Source of the DNA: an uncultured Patescibacteria group bacterium
Lineage (GTDB): Bacteria > Patescibacteriota > Microgenomatia > UBA1400 > PJMF01
NCBI GenBank assembly: GCA_905478415.1
Contig: CAJQIG010000002.1
Span: 314,699-378,698, forward strand
DNA length: 64,000 nucleotides
Direction: 5' to 3'
Shown here: positions 10,450-17,439 of the stretch, piece after piece
Layout of the letters: every line of letters begins with the position of its first letter
Position numbering within the stretch: position 1 is the stretch's first letter
The notes under the pieces: generated by a model
The model's input: the letters and a program-made list of their open reading frames with translations, nothing else
Told to the model about the DNA's origin: nothing
Database searches by the model: none
Translations under genes and position numbers: made by a program

Positions 10450-10931
10450 AAAAGCTAGTGACTACTCTTCTGAAGAAGTGCCAAAAACAACGTGGATCCA
10501 CGCTGATTGAGTTGTTGATAGCCACTATGGTTGTGGGGACGGTGATCACCGCGGTAGCCGCTGGAGTGACTCGTTCTGTCAAGAATAACAGTGAGGCCCA
10601 ATACCGAGAAATTGCAACGGTTTTGGCCCAACAAGGAGTTGAAATGTTTAGAAGTGAACGAAATAATTTAGGATGGGTTACGTTTCATAATGATATCGTG
10701 GCGGGGACCTACTGTATTCCAGCTGGAGCCGATGAGTTAGGTGATTTATCGACAGATTTGGTTAACTGTGCGGTTACTGAATCTAATTTTGATTTTAACA
10801 GGCAAGTAGTCTTGACTAAAACTAGTGGTGCAGACCCTGGCGTGACGTTAGAAGTGACCGTGCAGTGGGATCGAAGATCTGGTTCTATGAGTGATGTCAA
10901 AGTGACGCAGACGTTCAAGGATTACGAATAA
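10446..10931 (+). CDS. prepilin-type minor pilin (G|S variant)
   Basis: MKKLVTTLLKKCQKQRG|STLIELLIATMVVG with E+5 conserved. Confidence 0.55.
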   Translation: MKKLVTTLLKKCQKQRGSTLIELLIATMVVGTVITAVAAGVTRSVKNNSEAQYREIATVLAQQGVEMFRSERNNLGWVTFHNDIVAGTYCIPAGADELGDLSTDLVNCAVTESNFDFNRQVVLTKTSGADPGVTLEVTVQWDRRSGSMSDVKVTQTFKDYE

Positions 10932-10942
10932 TTTTTTTGAAG

Positions 10943-11491
10943 TTAATTTCTAAGTGAGACAATTGTGGAGAAATGTTGTGTTGATTCTTCGGCCGAAGTA
11001 TTGTTGACCGATGGAATAACTTTATTTAAATCAAAGTCAATTTTTACAGAACGACCTCCACTAACTGATTCTGTGCAACTAAATTGTAGGTTTTCTGCTT
11101 CTACTTCATCTGAGGTAATGTACATACCACTATTAGAAGCGATTTTAGTGCTCGTGCCATTTAATTCGAGAAAGAACTCCGTTTGTCCTCCATCGAGAGA
11201 TTCGAGTTTGATTTTATCCATGCTTGCTTGGCAGATTTGTGTGTCAGAATTTTCAACAACTTGATATGAATTCCTAAGTAAGAATTCCATCTGAGAGAGT
11301 GCGTACGACCCTTCGATTTTGAGGGTATTTTTAGTGTTAGTGCGGGCATTTGTGACCAAGAAGGTCATGAACATAGCTGAAACAGTCAGACTGAGGATGA
11401 CCATCAGGCTAGTGACAATCATCAGCTCAATCAGGGTAAAACCCTGGTTTTTAGCAGTTTTAAGAGTTCTTGAAGCATTGTTTAGAGGCAT
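10943..11491 (-). CDS. prepilin-type minor pilin (convergent with the previous four)
   Basis: MPLNNASRTLKTAKNQG|FTLIELMIVTSLMV leader. The ORF extends to a TTG at 11527; ATG 11491 preferred. It directly follows the NDT-RHH gene at 11530..12114 on the same strand. Confidence 0.6.
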   Translation of the reverse strand: MPLNNASRTLKTAKNQGFTLIELMIVTSLMVILSLTVSAMFMTFLVTNARTNTKNTLKIEGSYALSQMEFLLRNSYQVVENSDTQICQASMDKIKLESLDGGQTEFFLELNGTSTKIASNSGMYITSDEVEAENLQFSCTESVSGGRSVKIDFDLNKVIPSVNNTSAEESTQHFSTIVSLRN

Positions 11492-11529
11492 AGAGGCACC
11501 ATTTGTTACTTGTGTATCTATCTGCAATT

Positions 11530-12114
11530 CTACTCTATTTTGAAACGTGATTCTAGGTGGGTGTTTTTTTGTTGAATAGCTTCATCAATGAGATCTCGGA
11601 TGAGAGTGGATTTAGGCTTTTTTTGCTGGTGTGAGAGTTCCTCCAGAAAATGATTCTGTTTTGCTGTTATAAAAAAATTGAAACGCATGTTTAACTGTTC
11701 TTTTGAAAAAGCGAGAGCTTCTTTAACCATGTATTCTAAGTTGTCATTGTTATATTCAATTATTTGAATTAATTCATCATCAATGCCTCTAAATACAAAT
11801 GGAATTGATGTTTTATTTTCTTCCATCAAGATAATTACTGGTTTCTTCATTGCCATTGCGAATGAGAGTTCATAACCTGCATTAATATCACTCTCTGTGA
11901 TTTCATAGATGATTACATCAGCTTTTTTCATCCATGTAACAAATTTCTTTCTAAATTTTATTGATTCTTTAACTGATTCATTTTTTATTTCATTAATAGT
12001 TCTATTTAAATAATGATTAGTAATTAACTTGTGATCTGACGTAGATATACTATTGATAATTTTTTTATAGTTTTCAATATTACCATTTACTACTGCTGCG
12101 AAGTGAACAAACAT
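11530..12114 (-). CDS. NDT-like (nucleoside 2-deoxyribosyltransferase-fold) domain fused to a C-terminal ribbon-helix-helix DNA-binding domain (paralog A)
   Basis: N-terminus KKADVIIYEITESDINAGYELSFAMAMKKPVIIL resembles the NDT/DNPH1 family (...D.GT.fElGyA...gKPV) with the catalytic Glu aligned in GYEL. C-terminus MRFNFFITAKQNHFLEELSHQQKKPKSTLIRDLIDEAI has an RHH/CopG-like beta-alpha-alpha pattern. The gene is AT-rich. Confidence 0.5.
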   Translation of the reverse strand: MFVHFAAVVNGNIENYKKIINSISTSDHKLITNHYLNRTINEIKNESVKESIKFRKKFVTWMKKADVIIYEITESDINAGYELSFAMAMKKPVIILMEENKTSIPFVFRGIDDELIQIIEYNNDNLEYMVKEALAFSKEQLNMRFNFFITAKQNHFLEELSHQQKKPKSTLIRDLIDEAIQQKNTHLESRFKIE

Positions 12115-12177
12115 GATTATTTCAATATAATTAATTAAATATAGCGCATTATAAGACTATTTTGAGAAACTATAAAT

Positions 12178-12213
12178 GTGTAATTTTCACACCTTGATTA
12201 TAAGTGGTATAAT
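12178..12213 (+). promoter_or_regulatory. divergent promoter/operator region: imperfect palindrome GTGTAATTTTCACAC adjoining an extended -10 (TGgTATAAT) for the PNP-like gene
   Basis: Palindrome at 12178-12192 and TGGTATAAT at 12205-12213. A TATAAT on the opposite strand at 12148-12153 serves paralog A. Confidence 0.35.
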
Positions 12214-12286
12214 AGCATGCCTCTAGTTTGTAAAATTATGAGCTATAAATTATTAATAAGACTTGGTGTTAGAAGTATCTTTGTAT

Positions 12287-13339
12287 ATGAATCTGGAAAT
12301 TGAAAAAATTCTTCACAGAAAAAGGAACAAACCTTTTGTAATTACTAACTTGACGATGCACAGTATGGATGCGTCAGTGTTTGAGTATATAGAAATGAAG
12401 ATGCACCAAAAACTGAGAATGGACGTGAGTGGCTACAAAGAAGTTGTAGTTGTGGGAATGTATGACCGTTCGTGTGAAATTTCAGACCATGAGAAAACCG
12501 GTAAGTTAACAAACTGGCAACGTCCAACGGTAGAAGTGGTTGATGATGTGCTCATTCTCAAGTGCTTTCCTGGAAAAGACTATGTTGCTCACTATGCTTC
12601 TCTGGTAGCATCGTATTTTGCTCTCAAAGGACTTCCTTTCGATAACGTTAGTTTTGTGATTCCAACAGAACAAGAGTGTTGGGATGCAGTCTATGCTCTG
12701 CCATTAGATGTCATTGAAAAATCGGATGCTATTGTTGTAGGTTCTGGTTTATTCAACATTGCTGGTGAAACTGTCTTATGGCAAGGGAATGATGAGTTTT
12801 TGTGGGCATCAGAAGTGTTAGAGAATGGTAAGAAAATTTCGTATGCTATTTTTCAGTTTAGTTTTTGGGGAGATATTCTTTACAGAATCATTCATGTACT
12901 TGCAGAGCTTGGACACACCCAAGCAATTTTTACAGCTAAGATTGGTGGCATTGACGATCAGATTATTCCAAATGATACGCTTGCAACCGGAAGCTTGACT
13001 TCTATTAATGGAGAAATAGTCAAGTGGGATAATATTTTTGAAGCAGTACAATCAGAAAAATTACTGGTTGGAACTCACGTTAATTCGCATTCGGTGTTGC
13101 TTGAAACAAAAGACTGGGTTCGCTTATTCTCCACTTTCACCTTTGTTGATTCGGAAGTTGGGTACTTTGCAAAAGCTGCCAAAGAAGCAGACTTAGCTTT
13201 TGGATACCTTCACTTTGTTTCAAACAACTTATCAAAAATATTTAGTGAGGATTTGTCAAATGAAAGATCTGAAGTAGTTATCAAAAAAAGAAGTGTCCTC
13301 AATAGTGAAATTGGAAAGATTATAAAGAAGACGATATAA
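12287..13339 (+). CDS. PNP/UDP phosphorylase-family (nucleoside phosphorylase / nucleosidase fold) protein with an N-terminal extension of about 55 aa
   Basis: Aligns to MTA/SAH nucleosidase (Pfs): [32 protein letters not shown] ~ [39 protein letters not shown] ~ [16 protein letters not shown]...[31 protein letters not shown] ~ GLIVSGDAFING...[31 protein letters not shown]. The second Glu is conserved; the catalytic Asp position reads Asn. The ORF could start at TTG 12263. Confidence 0.5.
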   Translation: [350 protein letters not shown]

Positions 13340-13354
13340 GGGAACTAGAACAAT

Positions 13355-13918
13355 ATGAAAATTCACTTTGGCGCAGCCGTAGATGGCGATAAAAAAGATT
13401 ACCAAAAAATTTATGAAGTTATTGAAAAACTAGGTCATAGTGTAGTTACTGATCATTATTTAACAAGGAAAATAGAAGACATCAATAACGAAACCCCATC
13501 GGAAGCAGAGCTCTATGCAAAACGTTCGATGAGATGGATAAAAAACGCTGATGTAGTCTTGTTTGAAACTACTAAAGCTGATGTGAGTGTTGGATACGAG
13601 TTAGCAGTTGCAGTCAATCTGCATAAACCTGTGGTGGTTATGTATCACAACGAAAAAGGTCGTGCTCCAAACAGTATTAAAGGTGTCGAGTCCGAAAAAC
13701 TTCAAATTACTGGATATGATGATGAAACACTTGCAGAAATTTTAGATATCTCTCTCGAGAATGCGCATGATTCATCTGATGTTCGTTTTAATTTTTTCAT
13801 TTCTCCTGCTATTGGAAACTACCTCGATTGGATTGCCAAAAACAAAAAGATTCCTCGATCGGTATATCTGAGAACTTTAATTCAGAATGATATGGAAGCA
13901 AACGAAGAGTATCGATAG
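13355..13918 (+). CDS. NDT-like domain fused to a C-terminal ribbon-helix-helix domain (paralog B)
   Basis: About 40% identical to paralog A along the whole length: HFGAAVDG, KNADVVLFETTKADVSVGYELAVAVNLHKPVVVM, VRFNFFISPAIGNYLDWIAKNKKIPRSVYLRTLI. RBS AAGGGAA. Confidence 0.5.
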   Translation: MKIHFGAAVDGDKKDYQKIYEVIEKLGHSVVTDHYLTRKIEDINNETPSEAELYAKRSMRWIKNADVVLFETTKADVSVGYELAVAVNLHKPVVVMYHNEKGRAPNSIKGVESEKLQITGYDDETLAEILDISLENAHDSSDVRFNFFISPAIGNYLDWIAKNKKIPRSVYLRTLIQNDMEANEEYR

Positions 13919-13991
13919 CTCAAAAGCTCTCTTTTCCAAACCCTTTTTATCTTCTCTCCCCTCTTGCTTCGTGCCATAGTTTTACTGTACT

Positions 13992-14792
13992 ATGGAGCAT
14001 AGAGTTATGCTAAAAAAAACTTATACTTCTCAATCAGGACAAGTAGCCGTTATTGTCTTGCTAATCATGGTCGTGTTATTGACCATTGGTTTATCACTAG
14101 CGACACGGACTACCCAAGAACTTTTTCTTTCTGACCAACAGGCAGAAAGTTCTCGTGTCTTTAATGCCGCGGAGTCTGGTATCGAGAAGGCTCTAAGCGA
14201 CGTGCAAGTTGGCACGGGAAATCTCTCCGTGGACAACGTTGATGTAGCCTACTCTGTTCAGGGCAGTAGTGTATTGGAAACTCGAGTTACGGAAGGCATG
14301 AGTGTGCATCTTGATTTAACTGGTTACACTGGTGATGTCACGTTCGAATGGGCAGAAGAAGGATCTTGTGGATCCAGAGCTTCATTAATTGCCGTTATTT
14401 ATTACGATGATGCTGGAGAAATTAAATCTAAAAGTGTGCCGTTTGGCCCTGCCTGTGACAGTCGTCTAGACAACTTTGCAGATGGCCTCTTGTTAGGAGG
14501 CTCTCCTTATTATCATCGATACACACTTTCGACCACGTATCCAGACACACAAGTCAACCATATTCCAGCAAATACTCTTTTCATGAGAGTTAAGCCTGTC
14601 TACGCAGATACCGATTTGTTAATTAGTGGTGGCATCAGTTTCCCAACCCAACACCACACGATTAGTTCGACAGCTACCTACACTGGTGGGAATGAAGAGC
14701 GAAGTATCGAAGTATCACGAACGTTACCTGCTGGACCATCGTATATGGATTATGCCTTGTATTCAGGAGGAGCAATAACCCAGAATCCATAA
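13992..14792 (+). CDS. PilX-like pilus assembly protein (PilX N-terminal domain)
   Basis: N-terminus QSGQVAVIVLLIMVVLLTIGLSLATRTTQELFLSDQQAESSRVFNAAESGIEKAL matches the PilX_N pattern (Q.G.AL.v.L..l.vl...G......T......S.....A...AEAG.E.A). Sits upstream of pilMNO. Confidence 0.5.
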   Translation: MEHRVMLKKTYTSQSGQVAVIVLLIMVVLLTIGLSLATRTTQELFLSDQQAESSRVFNAAESGIEKALSDVQVGTGNLSVDNVDVAYSVQGSSVLETRVTEGMSVHLDLTGYTGDVTFEWAEEGSCGSRASLIAVIYYDDAGEIKSKSVPFGPACDSRLDNFADGLLLGGSPYYHRYTLSTTYPDTQVNHIPANTLFMRVKPVYADTDLLISGGISFPTQHHTISSTATYTGGNEERSIEVSRTLPAGPSYMDYALYSGGAITQNP

Positions 14793-14837
14793 ACTTGTAA
14801 CAATAGAGCAAATATAAAGAGTAAGAAAGCCTGCCCA

Positions 14838-15845
14838 ATGTCTACACTCGCACTTGATATCGGAACATATAGTATAAAAGCTGTCGCTGGAAAAGCTGGT
14901 CCAAAGCCAACTATTGAGCGTGTGGCCGAAGTTTTCAATACGGCTGGTATTGCTGTTCCAACTGACGATGTCAGCCAAGATAAGCTCATCAACCTTTTAG
15001 AATCAGTCATTGTAGATAACGATCTGCCTCGTACTGATGTTCGGCTCTCTCTGCCAGAATCTGTAATCTCAACAAAAGTAATCGAAATTCCTCCGCTCAG
15101 TGACGCCGAGTTAGCTTCTGCCATTGGCTGGCAAGCTGAACAACATATCCCTATTCCACCAGAGGAACTAGCTTTGGAATACCAAGTTCTCTATCGTCCA
15201 CCTAAAAAGGAAAAAAAGCCAATGCGGATCCTTTTAGTTGGTGCCAGAAAACAAGTTATTGATCGATATGTAGATATGTTCCATGTACTGGGTATCGAGC
15301 CATCATTACTTGAAACTCAAATTATTTCGGTCATGAGATCTCTGGTTTTTACCCCCGAGGATCCCAACACTATGGTTGTACATATTGGAGCTTCAAACAT
15401 GAATATGGGGCTTGTCAAAGGCGGTGAACTGCAGTTTGTGACTACACATATGAATGGTGGCCAGTTACTCACTAAAGCCTTAGAGCAAGGCGTGGGTCTT
15501 GATCAAACACAAGCTGAAAAATATAAGCGCACTTACGGTTTGGATGAATCACAATTCCAAGGTAAAGTGCAGGCTGCCTTATTACCAGCACTTAAAGTGC
15601 TCGTAACTGAAGTAAAGAAATCAGTTCAGTTTTTCGTGACAAAGTATCCACAAGAATCAGTACAAAGGATTGTGCTTTCTGGAGGAACGGCAACGCTTCC
15701 TCATTTAGTACAGTACATCACGCAGGAACTGGGAACCGAAGTTTTAGTTGCAGCTCCTTTTACTGGCGTGAATGGTCAAATTCCCGAAACTATTAATCAA
15801 CCAGCCATGAGTGTTTGTATGGGACTCATGCTCAGAGAAGTATAA
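14838..15845 (+). CDS. pilM: type IV pilus assembly protein PilM (actin-like ATPase)
   Basis: N-terminus LALDIGTYSIKAV. 335 aa with the FtsA/PilM fold pattern, followed by pilN and pilO. Confidence 0.85.
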   Translation: MSTLALDIGTYSIKAVAGKAGPKPTIERVAEVFNTAGIAVPTDDVSQDKLINLLESVIVDNDLPRTDVRLSLPESVISTKVIEIPPLSDAELASAIGWQAEQHIPIPPEELALEYQVLYRPPKKEKKPMRILLVGARKQVIDRYVDMFHVLGIEPSLLETQIISVMRSLVFTPEDPNTMVVHIGASNMNMGLVKGGELQFVTTHMNGGQLLTKALEQGVGLDQTQAEKYKRTYGLDESQFQGKVQAALLPALKVLVTEVKKSVQFFVTKYPQESVQRIVLSGGTATLPHLVQYITQELGTEVLVAAPFTGVNGQIPETINQPAMSVCMGLMLREV

Positions 15846-15849
15846 TTGT

Positions 15850-16482
15850 ATGGCTCGATCTATTAACTTTGTTGCCAACCGTAGAAAGCGTCTCACCTCA
15901 CAACAAAAACAGGATGAGAAGTTGTTTGGGTACTCTGTTATTGGCATTATTCTTGTCTTTGTTTTTTTCTTAATTGCAATTGGTATTAGATTCTTTGCTG
16001 TTTTTCAGGTTAAGGCTATGGAGGAACAGCAGGCAAATACTAGAAAAGCTATTCAGGCTCAAGAAAGTGTCGAGAAAGAATATAATATTTTTGCCCATAA
16101 GCTCCGAGCCTTATCCGACCTATTTGGAAAACGACAAAATAAACAGGAAGCTTTAGTTTATTTTTCTCAGGTTTTTGGACCACAGATTATTATTAGCGAA
16201 ATTGACTACTCGGCAGCAGAAGATGATATTGTTTCTTTCACTCTCACTGCTCCAAGTATTTTTGACCTGGAAAATGTTTTTACTATTTTAGACTCTGATG
16301 ATGTTAGTGAAAAATATGCCAAAATTGAACGAAGTAGCCTCGGCAGAGGTGATTCTGGCTCGTACTCAATTAAGTTAACCATTGTTTTGGGTGAATCAAC
16401 TGTTTTGGAGGAAGCAGCTGCGGCTCTCCCAGAAGAAGATTCAGTACAAGAAGCATTTGGTAAGGCACTACTGAATAATTAA
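15850..16482 (+). CDS. pilN: PilN-like bitopic pilus assembly protein
   Basis: Single TM (VIGIILVFVFFLIAIGIRFF) then a coiled coil. Positioned after pilM. Confidence 0.65.
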   Translation: MARSINFVANRRKRLTSQQKQDEKLFGYSVIGIILVFVFFLIAIGIRFFAVFQVKAMEEQQANTRKAIQAQESVEKEYNIFAHKLRALSDLFGKRQNKQEALVYFSQVFGPQIIISEIDYSAAEDDIVSFTLTAPSIFDLENVFTILDSDDVSEKYAKIERSSLGRGDSGSYSIKLTIVLGESTVLEEAAAALPEEDSVQEAFGKALLNN

Positions 16483-16485
16483 ATT

Positions 16486-17439
16486 ATGGCAAGCACACGA
16501 AAAAAACAGTTTAACTATAAAATCATTTGGATTACACGCCGAAAGTTGGTGTACTCTGTTGGCTTGGTTGCCTTGGCAATTTTACTCTTAGTATTTGCCT
16601 TTTATCCTCAAGTAAAAGAATCACTGGCTCTACAAAGTAAGTACAAAAAGGAACAGCCAAAGCTTCAAAAATTGCAAGCCAAGCTTACTGACTTACAAAC
16701 TATTGATTCTACCACTGAGTATGCACAAGCAGATGTGGTCCGGGCGGCGCTGCCATCAAACAAACCATTACTAGAGTTTTTAACCAGTTTAAATAGTATT
16801 GCCGTGGCCAGTAACATTGCTGTTAAAGATTTTGCTCTTTCACCAGGCTCAATTGCAACTGATAGCGCCGAGGCCGCAACAAATAAAAAATCCAAAAATG
16901 CAGATAATGTTGACACGTTAGATCTTGAAATTGAGATTGAGGGCACTTTCGATCAACTGCAGCAATTTCTGCTTGATATCGAAAAAATCTCACCATTTAC
17001 GACTATTACGCAACTTTCACTCGGTAAAGGGACTTCGGCAGCTGATAGAAGTACTGATCGAATAATTGGTGCAAAGCTGAGTACCAGTACCTACTTCTTC
17101 ACCCAGTCCATTAAGGCTACTGTTGATGCTCCACTCCCAAAGTTGACAGCTACTGATCGCAATGTTCTTACTGCCTTGAGTGATTTTCAAGAGTACGATT
17201 TGCCAGAACAAACAGAAATCTTGGGAGGCGTTGCTGACCCATTTGGCATTAACAAACTAGAAATACTGAACCAGTTTGGTGACTCATTGTCTCCGCTTCC
17301 TCAAAGTAGTGGCCCTTCTCTGCTCCAAACTCGGTTAGAGACACCGCCAGACGATGCAACTGCGGTTACGCCAGATACGGCACCAGCACCTTCAGAACAG
17401 CAGGCAGACGAAGCTCCTCCAACATTTGCTACAGAGTAA
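16486..17439 (+). CDS. pilO: PilO-like bitopic pilus assembly protein with a low-complexity C-terminal tail
   Basis: TM (VYSVGLVALAILLLVFAF), a coiled coil, and a C-terminal P/A/T-rich tail. Confidence 0.6.
   Translation: MASTRKKQFNYKIIWITRRKLVYSVGLVALAILLLVFAFYPQVKESLALQSKYKKEQPKLQKLQAKLTDLQTIDSTTEYAQADVVRAALPSNKPLLEFLTSLNSIAVASNIAVKDFALSPGSIATDSAEAATNKKSKNADNVDTLDLEIEIEGTFDQLQQFLLDIEKISPFTTITQLSLGKGTSAADRSTDRIIGAKLSTSTYFFTQSIKATVDAPLPKLTATDRNVLTALSDFQEYDLPEQTEILGGVADPFGINKLEILNQFGDSLSPLPQSSGPSLLQTRLETPPDDATAVTPDTAPAPSEQQADEAPPTFATE

Follow-up and report, generated by a model that had tools for sequence, protein, structure and literature searches.

In a stretch of 64,000 nucleotides (hereafter the window) from an uncultured Patescibacteria group bacterium (contig CAJQIG010000002.1 of GenBank assembly GCA_905478415.1, positions 314,699 to 378,698), three genes, here called A, B and C, are located within a type IV pilus (T4P) locus. 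A and C encode paralogous proteins in which an N-terminal nucleoside 2-deoxyribosyltransferase (NDT)-like domain, closest to DNPH1/Rcl, is followed by a probable ribbon-helix-helix (RHH) segment, and B encodes a protein with the NP-I nucleoside phosphorylase fold. Our favoured reading, to which we give about an even chance of being right, is that A and C are ligand-sensing RHH regulators, that B is the partner enzyme of C, and that C acts at the promoter of the adjacent operon of X266, a PilX_N-like protein, and pilMNO. Ligand sensing and regulatory target are proposed from four features taken together: the fixed two-domain architecture, the constraint on the tail, the loss of catalytic residues, and the tracking of enzymes by the heads and of the operon by the tails.

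T4P are central to the epibiotic lifestyle and the DNA uptake of Patescibacteria; to our knowledge, almost nothing is known of regulation in these organisms. A family located next to pilMNO and behind genes for nucleoside and S-adenosylmethionine (SAM) enzymes offers a concrete, testable handle on this regulation. Several hundred clusters of "hypothetical proteins" gain an identity, and B is flagged as a new NP-I enzyme family.

The N-terminal domain of A and C

An earlier note, made from the sequence alone, had described two paralogous proteins of about 190 aa on opposite strands flanking B. The three open reading frames were confirmed at the coordinates given in Table 1, and A and C were aligned with 34% identity across 176 aa (E = 3e-44). 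Using Pfam, C was assigned to PF05014 (Nuc_deoxyrib_tr) with 34.1 bits, above the cut-off of 28.8, while A came just under it with 28.0 bits. A profile of 44 family sequences matched DNPH1/Rcl structures with E = 5.5e-21 over residues 3–135, and classical NDT and a TIR protein at only 0.01. The AlphaFold2 (AF2) model of the C monomer (pLDDT 88) adopted the flavodoxin-like NDT fold and could be superposed on DNPH1 with TM 0.76–0.88, and its top 50 Foldseek matches were all DNPH1/Rcl (TM 0.66–0.88, normalised to the target), with the PDB mutant entries D80A and Y24F among the structural matches. The NDT-like N-domains proposed in the earlier note were thus upheld for both proteins.

The Glu of the GYEL motif, found in both A and C, aligns with the nucleophile of DNPH1, and a structural motif (D66/E71/G80/K91-P92) is common to the family and DNPH1. 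Further catalytic residues of DNPH1 (Y13/D69 in the rat and Y24/D80 in the human enzyme), along with Ser residues that bind the 5'-phosphate, were not retained: the Tyr is replaced by His4, the Asp by Ser58 in C and Phe58 in A, the equivalent of S87 is Asp76 in C, and that of S117 is the conserved Pro105. Across the family the Asp-equivalent position is variable and mostly hydrophobic.

Of 122 close homologues, 22 had L, V, I, Q or a similar residue in place of the nucleophile itself. For a wider survey, 80 loci from GTDB were annotated with hidden Markov models (HMMs) built from the window's own proteins, which yielded 130 family genes; the Glu was missing in 56 of these (43%) and kept in 74, and it was missing in 12 of the 23 pil-linked copies. 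Among the Glu-less genes were those in the slot of A in L001, L008 and L009 and that in the slot of C in L158 (labels L001–L158 denote the compared loci of relatives). The catalytic Glu, described earlier as apparently conserved, is therefore no hallmark of the family, being present in A and C and absent from about half of the pil-linked copies. Loss of the Glu and variability of the Asp equivalent together form the pattern of enzyme-derived sensor domains, in which catalysis is dispensable.

The C-terminal tail

In the AF2 model of C, an extended segment (residues 141–150) is followed by helices at 151–163 and 168–182, giving a strand-helix-helix topology; the motifs RFNFFIS and IPRS seen in the family agree with the alternation of polar and hydrophobic strand residues and the G/P-x-S/T turn ahead of helix 2 that mark RHH domains. 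With a tail-only profile, the best PDB matches were RHH proteins (AvtR, E 0.12; CopG, E 1.1, aligned over its full length), and of 22 family tails, 4–5 each matched RHH_1 (best E 2.2e-4), RHH_3 (1.8e-3) and a NikA-like family (9.8e-5). Direct profile matching of the tail to hand-entered sequences of Arc, Mnt and CopG gave insignificant results. Model topology, tail profile and family-tail Pfam matches agree that the segment is probably an RHH, as had been proposed before, by which A and C would bind DNA.

The tail is near-invariant in the family, while the N-domains are 25–40% identical. Where tail residues are identical, about half of their codons show synonymous differences, which indicates long-term purifying selection on the protein and not on the DNA. 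Gene conversion or concerted evolution of tails within a genome was considered and rejected, since tail identity was 0.58–0.63 within the same locus versus 0.63–0.64 between loci, and saturation was seen at synonymous sites.

Tails were further compared between members with N-domain identity below 0.40. Identity was 0.62 among pil-linked copies, 0.52 between pil-linked and other copies and 0.47 among the others (Mann–Whitney p about 3e-44, calculated on non-independent pairs). The consensus of the pil-type tail is ...SPxIGNYLDWISKxKKIPRSVYLRNLIExDME..., and the other copies mostly carry PRA. This tail is common to at least five N-domain subfamilies, both Glu-bearing and Glu-less, with differing upstream genes. 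At L158, where the slot holds a methyltransferase gene followed by a family gene, the tail of the family protein is 90% identical to that of C, its N-domain 28%, and X266 is 66% identical to that of the window.

Variant RHH strands (RFN[LM][LM]LS, RFTFFVT, KFSFVLS), differing at positions expected to face DNA, were observed in later copies of tandem arrays with 4–6 family genes (L030 5211–9109, L035 5069–7388, L060 526–2856, L023 8001–10535).

Family size, distribution and partner enzymes

Homologues of C were found in their hundreds, full-length at about 190 aa and labelled "hypothetical", in Pacebacteria, Microgenomates, Woesebacteria and other Patescibacteria. An exhaustive HMM search returned 289 clusters (50% identity) at E ≤ 1e-30 and, with the limit relaxed to E ≤ 1e-10, 1370; nearly all of the top 150 matches had lengths of 185–195 aa and aligned end to end. 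No NCBIfam family was matched, and neither an NDT/DNPH1-RHH fusion nor its tie to Patescibacteria pili was found described in a literature search. PADLOC contains no model of the fusion either.

The family is multi-copy and often arranged in tandem, with arrays of up to 4–6 genes (L030, L035, L060), so that the duplication pointed out in the earlier note is not peculiar to this locus. Directly upstream of 60 of the 130 family genes (same strand, gap <150 nt) an identified enzyme gene is located, and 23 follow another family member. These nucleoside, nucleotide or SAM enzymes comprise five SAM-methyltransferase families, radical-SAM proteins, PfkB kinases, a dCMP/cytidine deaminase, a thymidine-kinase (TK)-like P-loop protein, a protein resembling uracil phosphoribosyltransferase (UPRT), and B. 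Neighbour-joining of the N-domains gave subfamilies that differ in their partner enzyme, one to each, and C of the window falls into the B-partnered subfamily. Fusions of PfkB with PF05014, assigned to purine salvage in a preprint (PMC13082051), provide an independent link between those two domain families.

B was found beside a C-family gene only in near relatives of the window, namely in 7 of the loci examined, including one duplicate. At L010 and L088 it and C are oriented divergently, and the second paralogue is missing; elsewhere its slot is taken by a methyltransferase, a dCMP deaminase, a UPRT-like gene or a GFO oxidoreductase. As the gene in the slot of A also changes between close relatives, the three-gene module of the earlier note does not hold as a conserved unit.

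In more than 20 loci (L021/L003 7001–8745 and similar), the family occupies another conserved position, with the order DnaX-YbaB-RecR-(radical SAM)-family gene(s)-201 aa-CysRS, or with RmlC on the opposite strand. Two members are of odd length and rare: P0209 (401 aa), covered by the profile in two separate stretches, is possibly a tandem fusion, and P0269 (324 aa) carries about 120 additional residues at its C-terminal end. Between L008 and L087, many contigs with plainly Patescibacteria-type genes bear the title "uncultured Pseudomonadales", and isolated ones name Bathyarchaeia, Methylococcaceae or Limisphaerales, which are likely label or binning errors.

The partner enzymes could also be taken to mean, as the main rival reading has it, that A and C are themselves active (deoxy)nucleotide/nucleoside N-glycosidases or transferases, which serve with B in the salvage of imported DNA and use the RHH for autoregulation or tethering, as "trigger enzymes" like PutA. 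The strong DNPH1 match, the nucleophile Glu kept in A and C, the neighbouring dCMP deaminase, TK-like, UPRT-like, PfkB and NP-I enzymes, and the reliance of Patescibacteria on salvage are in line with this. We nevertheless consider it unlikely, given the His and Ser/Phe at the Tyr and Asp positions of DNPH1, the conserved Pro in place of the phosphate-binding Ser117, the large Glu-less fraction, which includes same-slot genes in the near relatives L001, L008, L009 and L158, and the finding that conservation along the protein is lowest in the enzyme-like domain.

Linkage to the pilMNO operon and candidate promoters

The T4P cluster around the three genes is complete (PilB, PilT, PilC, pilin, PilD, minor pilins, A, B, C, X266, PilM/N/O), and their position between the minor-pilin block and PilX-like/PilM/N/O, as given in the earlier note, was seen in the full locus. 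The order C-X266-PilM-PilN-PilO recurred in about 30 of the 80 scanned loci with varying upstream genes, i.e. the linkage to X266-pilMNO persists when the upstream neighbour changes. At L076, there is an overlap of 4 nt between the family gene and the leading member of a row of 7 pilin genes. For the reverse test, PilM in metagenome contigs was used as the starting point, which gave 56 informative X266-pilMNO loci; a family gene was located directly upstream in 15 (27%) and nearby or divergent in 6, together 38%. The pil linkage is far above chance, yet facultative and lineage-dependent.

In many loci, the spacer between C and X266 holds a C-rich box fused to a -35-like TTGC, with an extended -10 element 17–18 nt further on (for example CTCCCATTGCA...GGTATTATT; in the window CCCCTCTTGCT...TACTAT). 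Of 39 loci in which X266 directly follows a family gene, 17 have the box in front of X266, as against 0 of the 49 loci that lack such a gene (p about 8e-8). As the -10-like TACTAT overlaps the first ATG of X266 (13992), and both the X266 homologues and a publicly annotated gene (261 aa) begin with the ATG at 14007, translation of X266 probably starts there, leaving little or no 5' leader.

Within the A/B intergenic region, a promoter-like site on the plus strand (TTCACA-16-TATAAT with extended TG, 12186..12213) and one on the minus strand (12176..12148) are placed back to back, and the inverted repeat TGTGTAATTTTCACA (12177..12191) is located between and over their -35 elements. Similar TGTG-N-CACA repeats were found near promoters in L029, L037, L086, L018 and L026, the counts being 8 of 101 versus 7 of 431 upstream regions; this signal is weak, was defined post hoc and shows no enrichment in the window. 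An Rfam scan of 10800–15000 returned no riboswitch or other RNA element, the sole match being a chance snoRNA.

Regulation confined to the proteins' own enzyme cassette, with the pil adjacency being inherited synteny or an insertion hot spot and having no role at the pilus genes, would fit the 62% of X266-pilMNO operons without a family member, the many copies in unrelated contexts (RecR/radical SAM/RmlC, PfkB, CysRS) and the possession by X266 of a candidate promoter of its own. This explanation appears distinctly improbable, as the pil-linked copies share a specific tail across at least five N-domain subfamilies and varied upstream genes, the L076 gene is translationally coupled to a pilin gene, and the box promoter and C tend to occur together.

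Proposed mechanism and points against it

According to the favoured reading, the family, mainly from Microgenomates, Pacebacteria and Woesebacteria, would consist of one-component regulators of about 190 aa. The DNPH1/Rcl-derived domain would serve as a dimerising module that binds a small molecule (nucleoside or nucleotide), with some members possibly remaining catalytic, and the C-terminal Arc/CopG-type RHH would bind DNA. Typically, the family gene is the last in a short cassette behind an enzyme gene, and one copy with the pil-type tail is placed directly before the candidate promoter of the PilX-like-pilMNO operon. In the window, B and C would be co-transcribed from the 12186–12213 promoter, and C would act at the C-rich-box promoter (13958–13993), by which nucleoside status could be coupled to expression of the pilus alignment subcomplex. 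A is envisaged as a second, fast-turning-over paralogue, heading a divergent transcript with a pilin-like gene. The nucleoside-sensing regulator, one of the two readings offered in the earlier note, thereby survives in modified form.

Several observations weigh against this proposal. Pfam returned no RHH match for the window proteins or their tails, where support from sequence is weak. The Glu is retained in 57–82% of members, A and C among them, which leaves room for enzymatic activity. The DNA-reading strand RFNFFIS is common to co-resident paralogues, so cross-talk is predicted, which is unusual among paralogous regulators. No family member was present within about 4 kb of 35 of the 56 X266-pilMNO operons, where RecG was the commonest upstream gene, so that any role in pilus expression is facultative. 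The C-rich box was defined post hoc on phylogenetically non-independent loci, shows no more than marginal covariation with tail type (p = 0.05) and occurs in the window about as often as expected (16 matches versus 17.5), so a regulon signal there was rejected. The k-mer, dyad and footprint searches for operators were negative or weak: a repeat search in the two intergenic regions gave AT-rich low-information pairs only, enrichment of 6–8-mers upstream of family genes gave -10-like words only, comparison of the A/B region with L001, L008 and L009 showed nothing conserved beyond the promoter, and a gapped dyad search found nothing above 7 of 101 regions.

The lack of an operator in these searches, together with a tail almost invariant among co-resident paralogues, would be expected if the tail had a different conserved binding partner, for instance RNA, a protein or DNA entering at the pilus platform, and the family acted as an adaptor instead of a regulator. 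This is very unlikely in our view, because sequence pattern and predicted topology are typical of RHH, the best profile matches are the DNA binders CopG, AvtR and NikA-type proteins, and motifs for membrane or pilus interaction are absent.

A nucleotide-depleting defence or toxin-antitoxin (TA) module, the other reading of the earlier note and framed here as NDT/TIR-like and PNP-fold effectors under an RHH antitoxin-like controller, is scarcely tenable: the sub-threshold PADLOC matches of C (ThsB TIR-like, E 6e-4; PD-T4-4_A, E 2e-4) are expected from the known NDT/TIR fold relationship, and these, the AT-rich and rapidly turning-over A and one B homologue in a TA/methylase island of a Pseudomonadota metagenome-assembled genome (MAG) are set against no PADLOC match for A or B, no relatives of B and C in a tblastn search of 50,697 phage records, a constant placing in the T4P and housekeeping gene order of many genomes, a putative effector residue that many members have lost, and absence of any partner sensor, cyclase or toxin, the partners being methyltransferase, radical SAM, kinase, deaminase and NP-I enzymes.

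Beyond the regulators of this locus, a broader scheme can be put forward tentatively, and we regard it as possible but doubtful. The lineage-specific, expanded family of DNPH1-derived sensor-RHH proteins (at least 289 clusters) might constitute a modular regulatory layer, in which interchangeable heads for nucleosides, nucleotides or SAM by-products are paired with particular enzymes and the pil-type tail gates the PilX-like-pilMNO promoter. Pilus formation and DNA uptake would thereby be tied to nucleoside supply in organisms unable to make nucleotides, and B would represent a new NP-I enzyme family with a further use in the 7-deazapurine clusters of actinomycetes.

Gene B and its relatives

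With Pfam, B gave E = 0.081 and 12.7 bits for PNP_UDP_1 (PF01048), below the cut-off of 25.1, and a PDB sequence search returned no relative. The AF2 model (pLDDT 95.2, pTM 0.93) matched MTAP, MTAN, PNP, uridine phosphorylase and AMP nucleosidase; PDB matches with E ≤ 1e-3 numbered 664, of which MTAP 1je1 was the best (E = 1.9e-12, TM 0.70 normalised to the target), so that the PNP fold suggested earlier was confirmed by AF2 and Foldseek. About 95 N-terminal residues have no counterpart in the matched NP-I structures. Across 40 sequences of the B family, 31 positions are invariant, many of them charged or polar and several in the N-terminal extension (H40/R61/E69/K70/K73/N76/R79); because of these many invariant polar residues, B is probably an enzyme. 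In a weak alignment (E = 0.13) with a hand-entered sequence of E. coli MTAN, the invariant E290 falls on the ribose-binding Glu of "EME" and Asn313 on the general-acid Asp197.

B homologues were detectable in 66 cases, from Patescibacteria, a few actinomycetes, one Pseudomonadota MAG and fungi. In Nocardiopsis and Streptomyces, the homologue (37–41% identical) is part of a conserved operon with the order QueD (PTPS), QueE (radical SAM), FolE (GTP cyclohydrolase I), a protein of 270–274 aa, B and a thymidylate-kinase-like protein (L006 5344–10731, L089 1739–7046), flanked by mobile-element or biosynthetic genes. The QueD-QueE-FolE context suggests a role with unusual purine nucleosides, the actinomycete homologue being possibly an uncharacterised NP-I enzyme of a 7-deazapurine (7-deazaguanine-type) nucleoside or DNA-modification pathway. 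The 270–274-aa partner had no Pfam match; its Asp motifs (DNGVF, ILPDV, SVDxAAP) may be reminiscent of TGT/DpdA. It was considered as a relative of A and C and found to be unrelated, and a 272-aa neighbour in L090 is unrelated to this partner too. At L090 (5204–13211, the Pseudomonadota MAG), the B homologue is surrounded by HicAB, RelE/MqsA-like, FRG-domain, N6/N4 methylase and DUF6602 genes, an island-like setting unlike that in Patescibacteria.

Locus layout

The features of the locus are collected in Table 1. On the minus strand, A and the pilin-like gene form a pair in which A comes first and the gap is 2 nt. With a GC content of 0.29 versus 0.42 for the window, A is a strong, AT-rich compositional outlier. 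Genes in the same slot of relatives are AT-rich too (L001 5222–5800, GC 0.30; L008 6263–6832, GC 0.33; loci about 0.40–0.42). A of the window is 31% identical to the gene in this slot of L001 and 27% to that of L008, i.e. the subfamily differs between close relatives; the neighbouring pilin gene and C are 73% and 71% identical, respectively, between the window and L001. The subfamily switch and the low GC content suggest replacement or very fast divergence at the A slot. For B, an alternative TTG start is located at 12263.

Table 1 Features of the A/B/C locus, with positions in the window
Feature	Position	Strand	Basis or remark
Pilin-like gene	10943..11527	-	N_methyl motif; directly downstream of A
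Gene A, DNPH1-like and probable RHH protein, 194 aa	11530..12114	-	Open reading frame, Pfam, paralogy
A, C-terminal RHH-like tail, about residues 142–183	11566..11691	-	Strand MRFNFFIT; differs from the pil-type tail
A, DNPH1/NDT-like domain, about residues 1–137	11704..12114	-	GYEL Glu kept; Tyr equivalent His, Asp equivalent Phe
A/B divergent intergenic region	12115..12286		GC 0.24; back-to-back promoter-like sites
Gene B, NP-I fold (PNP/MTAP/MTAN-like), 350 aa	12287..13339	+	N-terminal extension of about 95 aa
Gene C, DNPH1-like and probable RHH protein, 187 aa	13355..13918	+	Start 15 nt past B
C, DNPH1-like domain, residues 1–137	13355..13765	+	His4, Ser58 and Glu82 at the Tyr, Asp and Glu positions of DNPH1
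C, probable RHH tail, pil type	13778..13903	+	DVRFNFFISPAIGNYLDWIAKNKKIPRSVYLRTLIQNDMEAN
C-rich box fused to -35-like TTGC, then -10-like TACTAT	13958..13993	+	C-to-X266 spacer; candidate promoter and candidate operator
X266, PilX_N-like protein	13992..14792	+	N-terminal transmembrane segment
pilM	14838..15845	+	
pilN-like	15850..16482	+	
pilO-like	16486..17439	+	

Comparison with known systems

Compared with DNPH1/Rcl, the family is homologous over its N-terminal 135 residues, and A and C keep the GYEL Glu; in contrast to DNPH1, it has no conserved catalytic Tyr/Asp, carries Pro at the Ser117 equivalent and is Glu-less in 43% of the members surveyed. DNPH1 and the NDTs are devoid of the probable C-terminal RHH which the A/C family carries. 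B shares the NP-I fold with DeoD PNP, MTAP and MTAN, including a Glu (E290) that aligns, weakly, with the ribose-binding one of "EME"; it differs by the lack of a significant sequence match, the extension of about 95 aa and, in the same weak alignment, Asn at the general-acid Asp of MTAN.

Known defence systems were not recovered: for Thoeris ThsB, CBASS Cap17, Detocs DtcC and PD-T4-4, A and B gave no match and C only the two sub-threshold ones (ThsB and PD-T4-4_A), and the neighbours are pilus and housekeeping genes. Type II TA systems are likewise set apart by the metabolic partner enzymes and the fixed genomic positions found here. HicB-type antitoxins are similar in having a globular N-domain followed by a C-terminal RHH and a gene that follows its partner gene, but the partners of the present family are ordinary metabolic enzymes in fixed housekeeping positions, and no TA or PADLOC model was matched.

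Regulators of the NikR, PutA and MetJ type combine an RHH with a ligand-binding or enzyme domain in one polypeptide and oligomerise via the second domain; however, the RHH of NikR and PutA is N-terminal, and their partner domains (ACT-like, proline dehydrogenase) are unrelated to DNPH1. The closest analogue of A and C in logic is NrtR, in which a partly degraded enzyme fold is reused as a sensor of nucleotide metabolites, joined to a DNA-binding domain and encoded beside metabolic genes. NrtR consists of a Nudix domain and a winged helix-turn-helix, whereas the present family has a DNPH1-like domain with the probable RHH at the C-terminus. A new kind of system is not claimed, as enzyme-derived one-component regulators are well known and each functional step is one that we infer; the joining of DNPH1/NDT with an RHH is a new domain combination within this well-known class.

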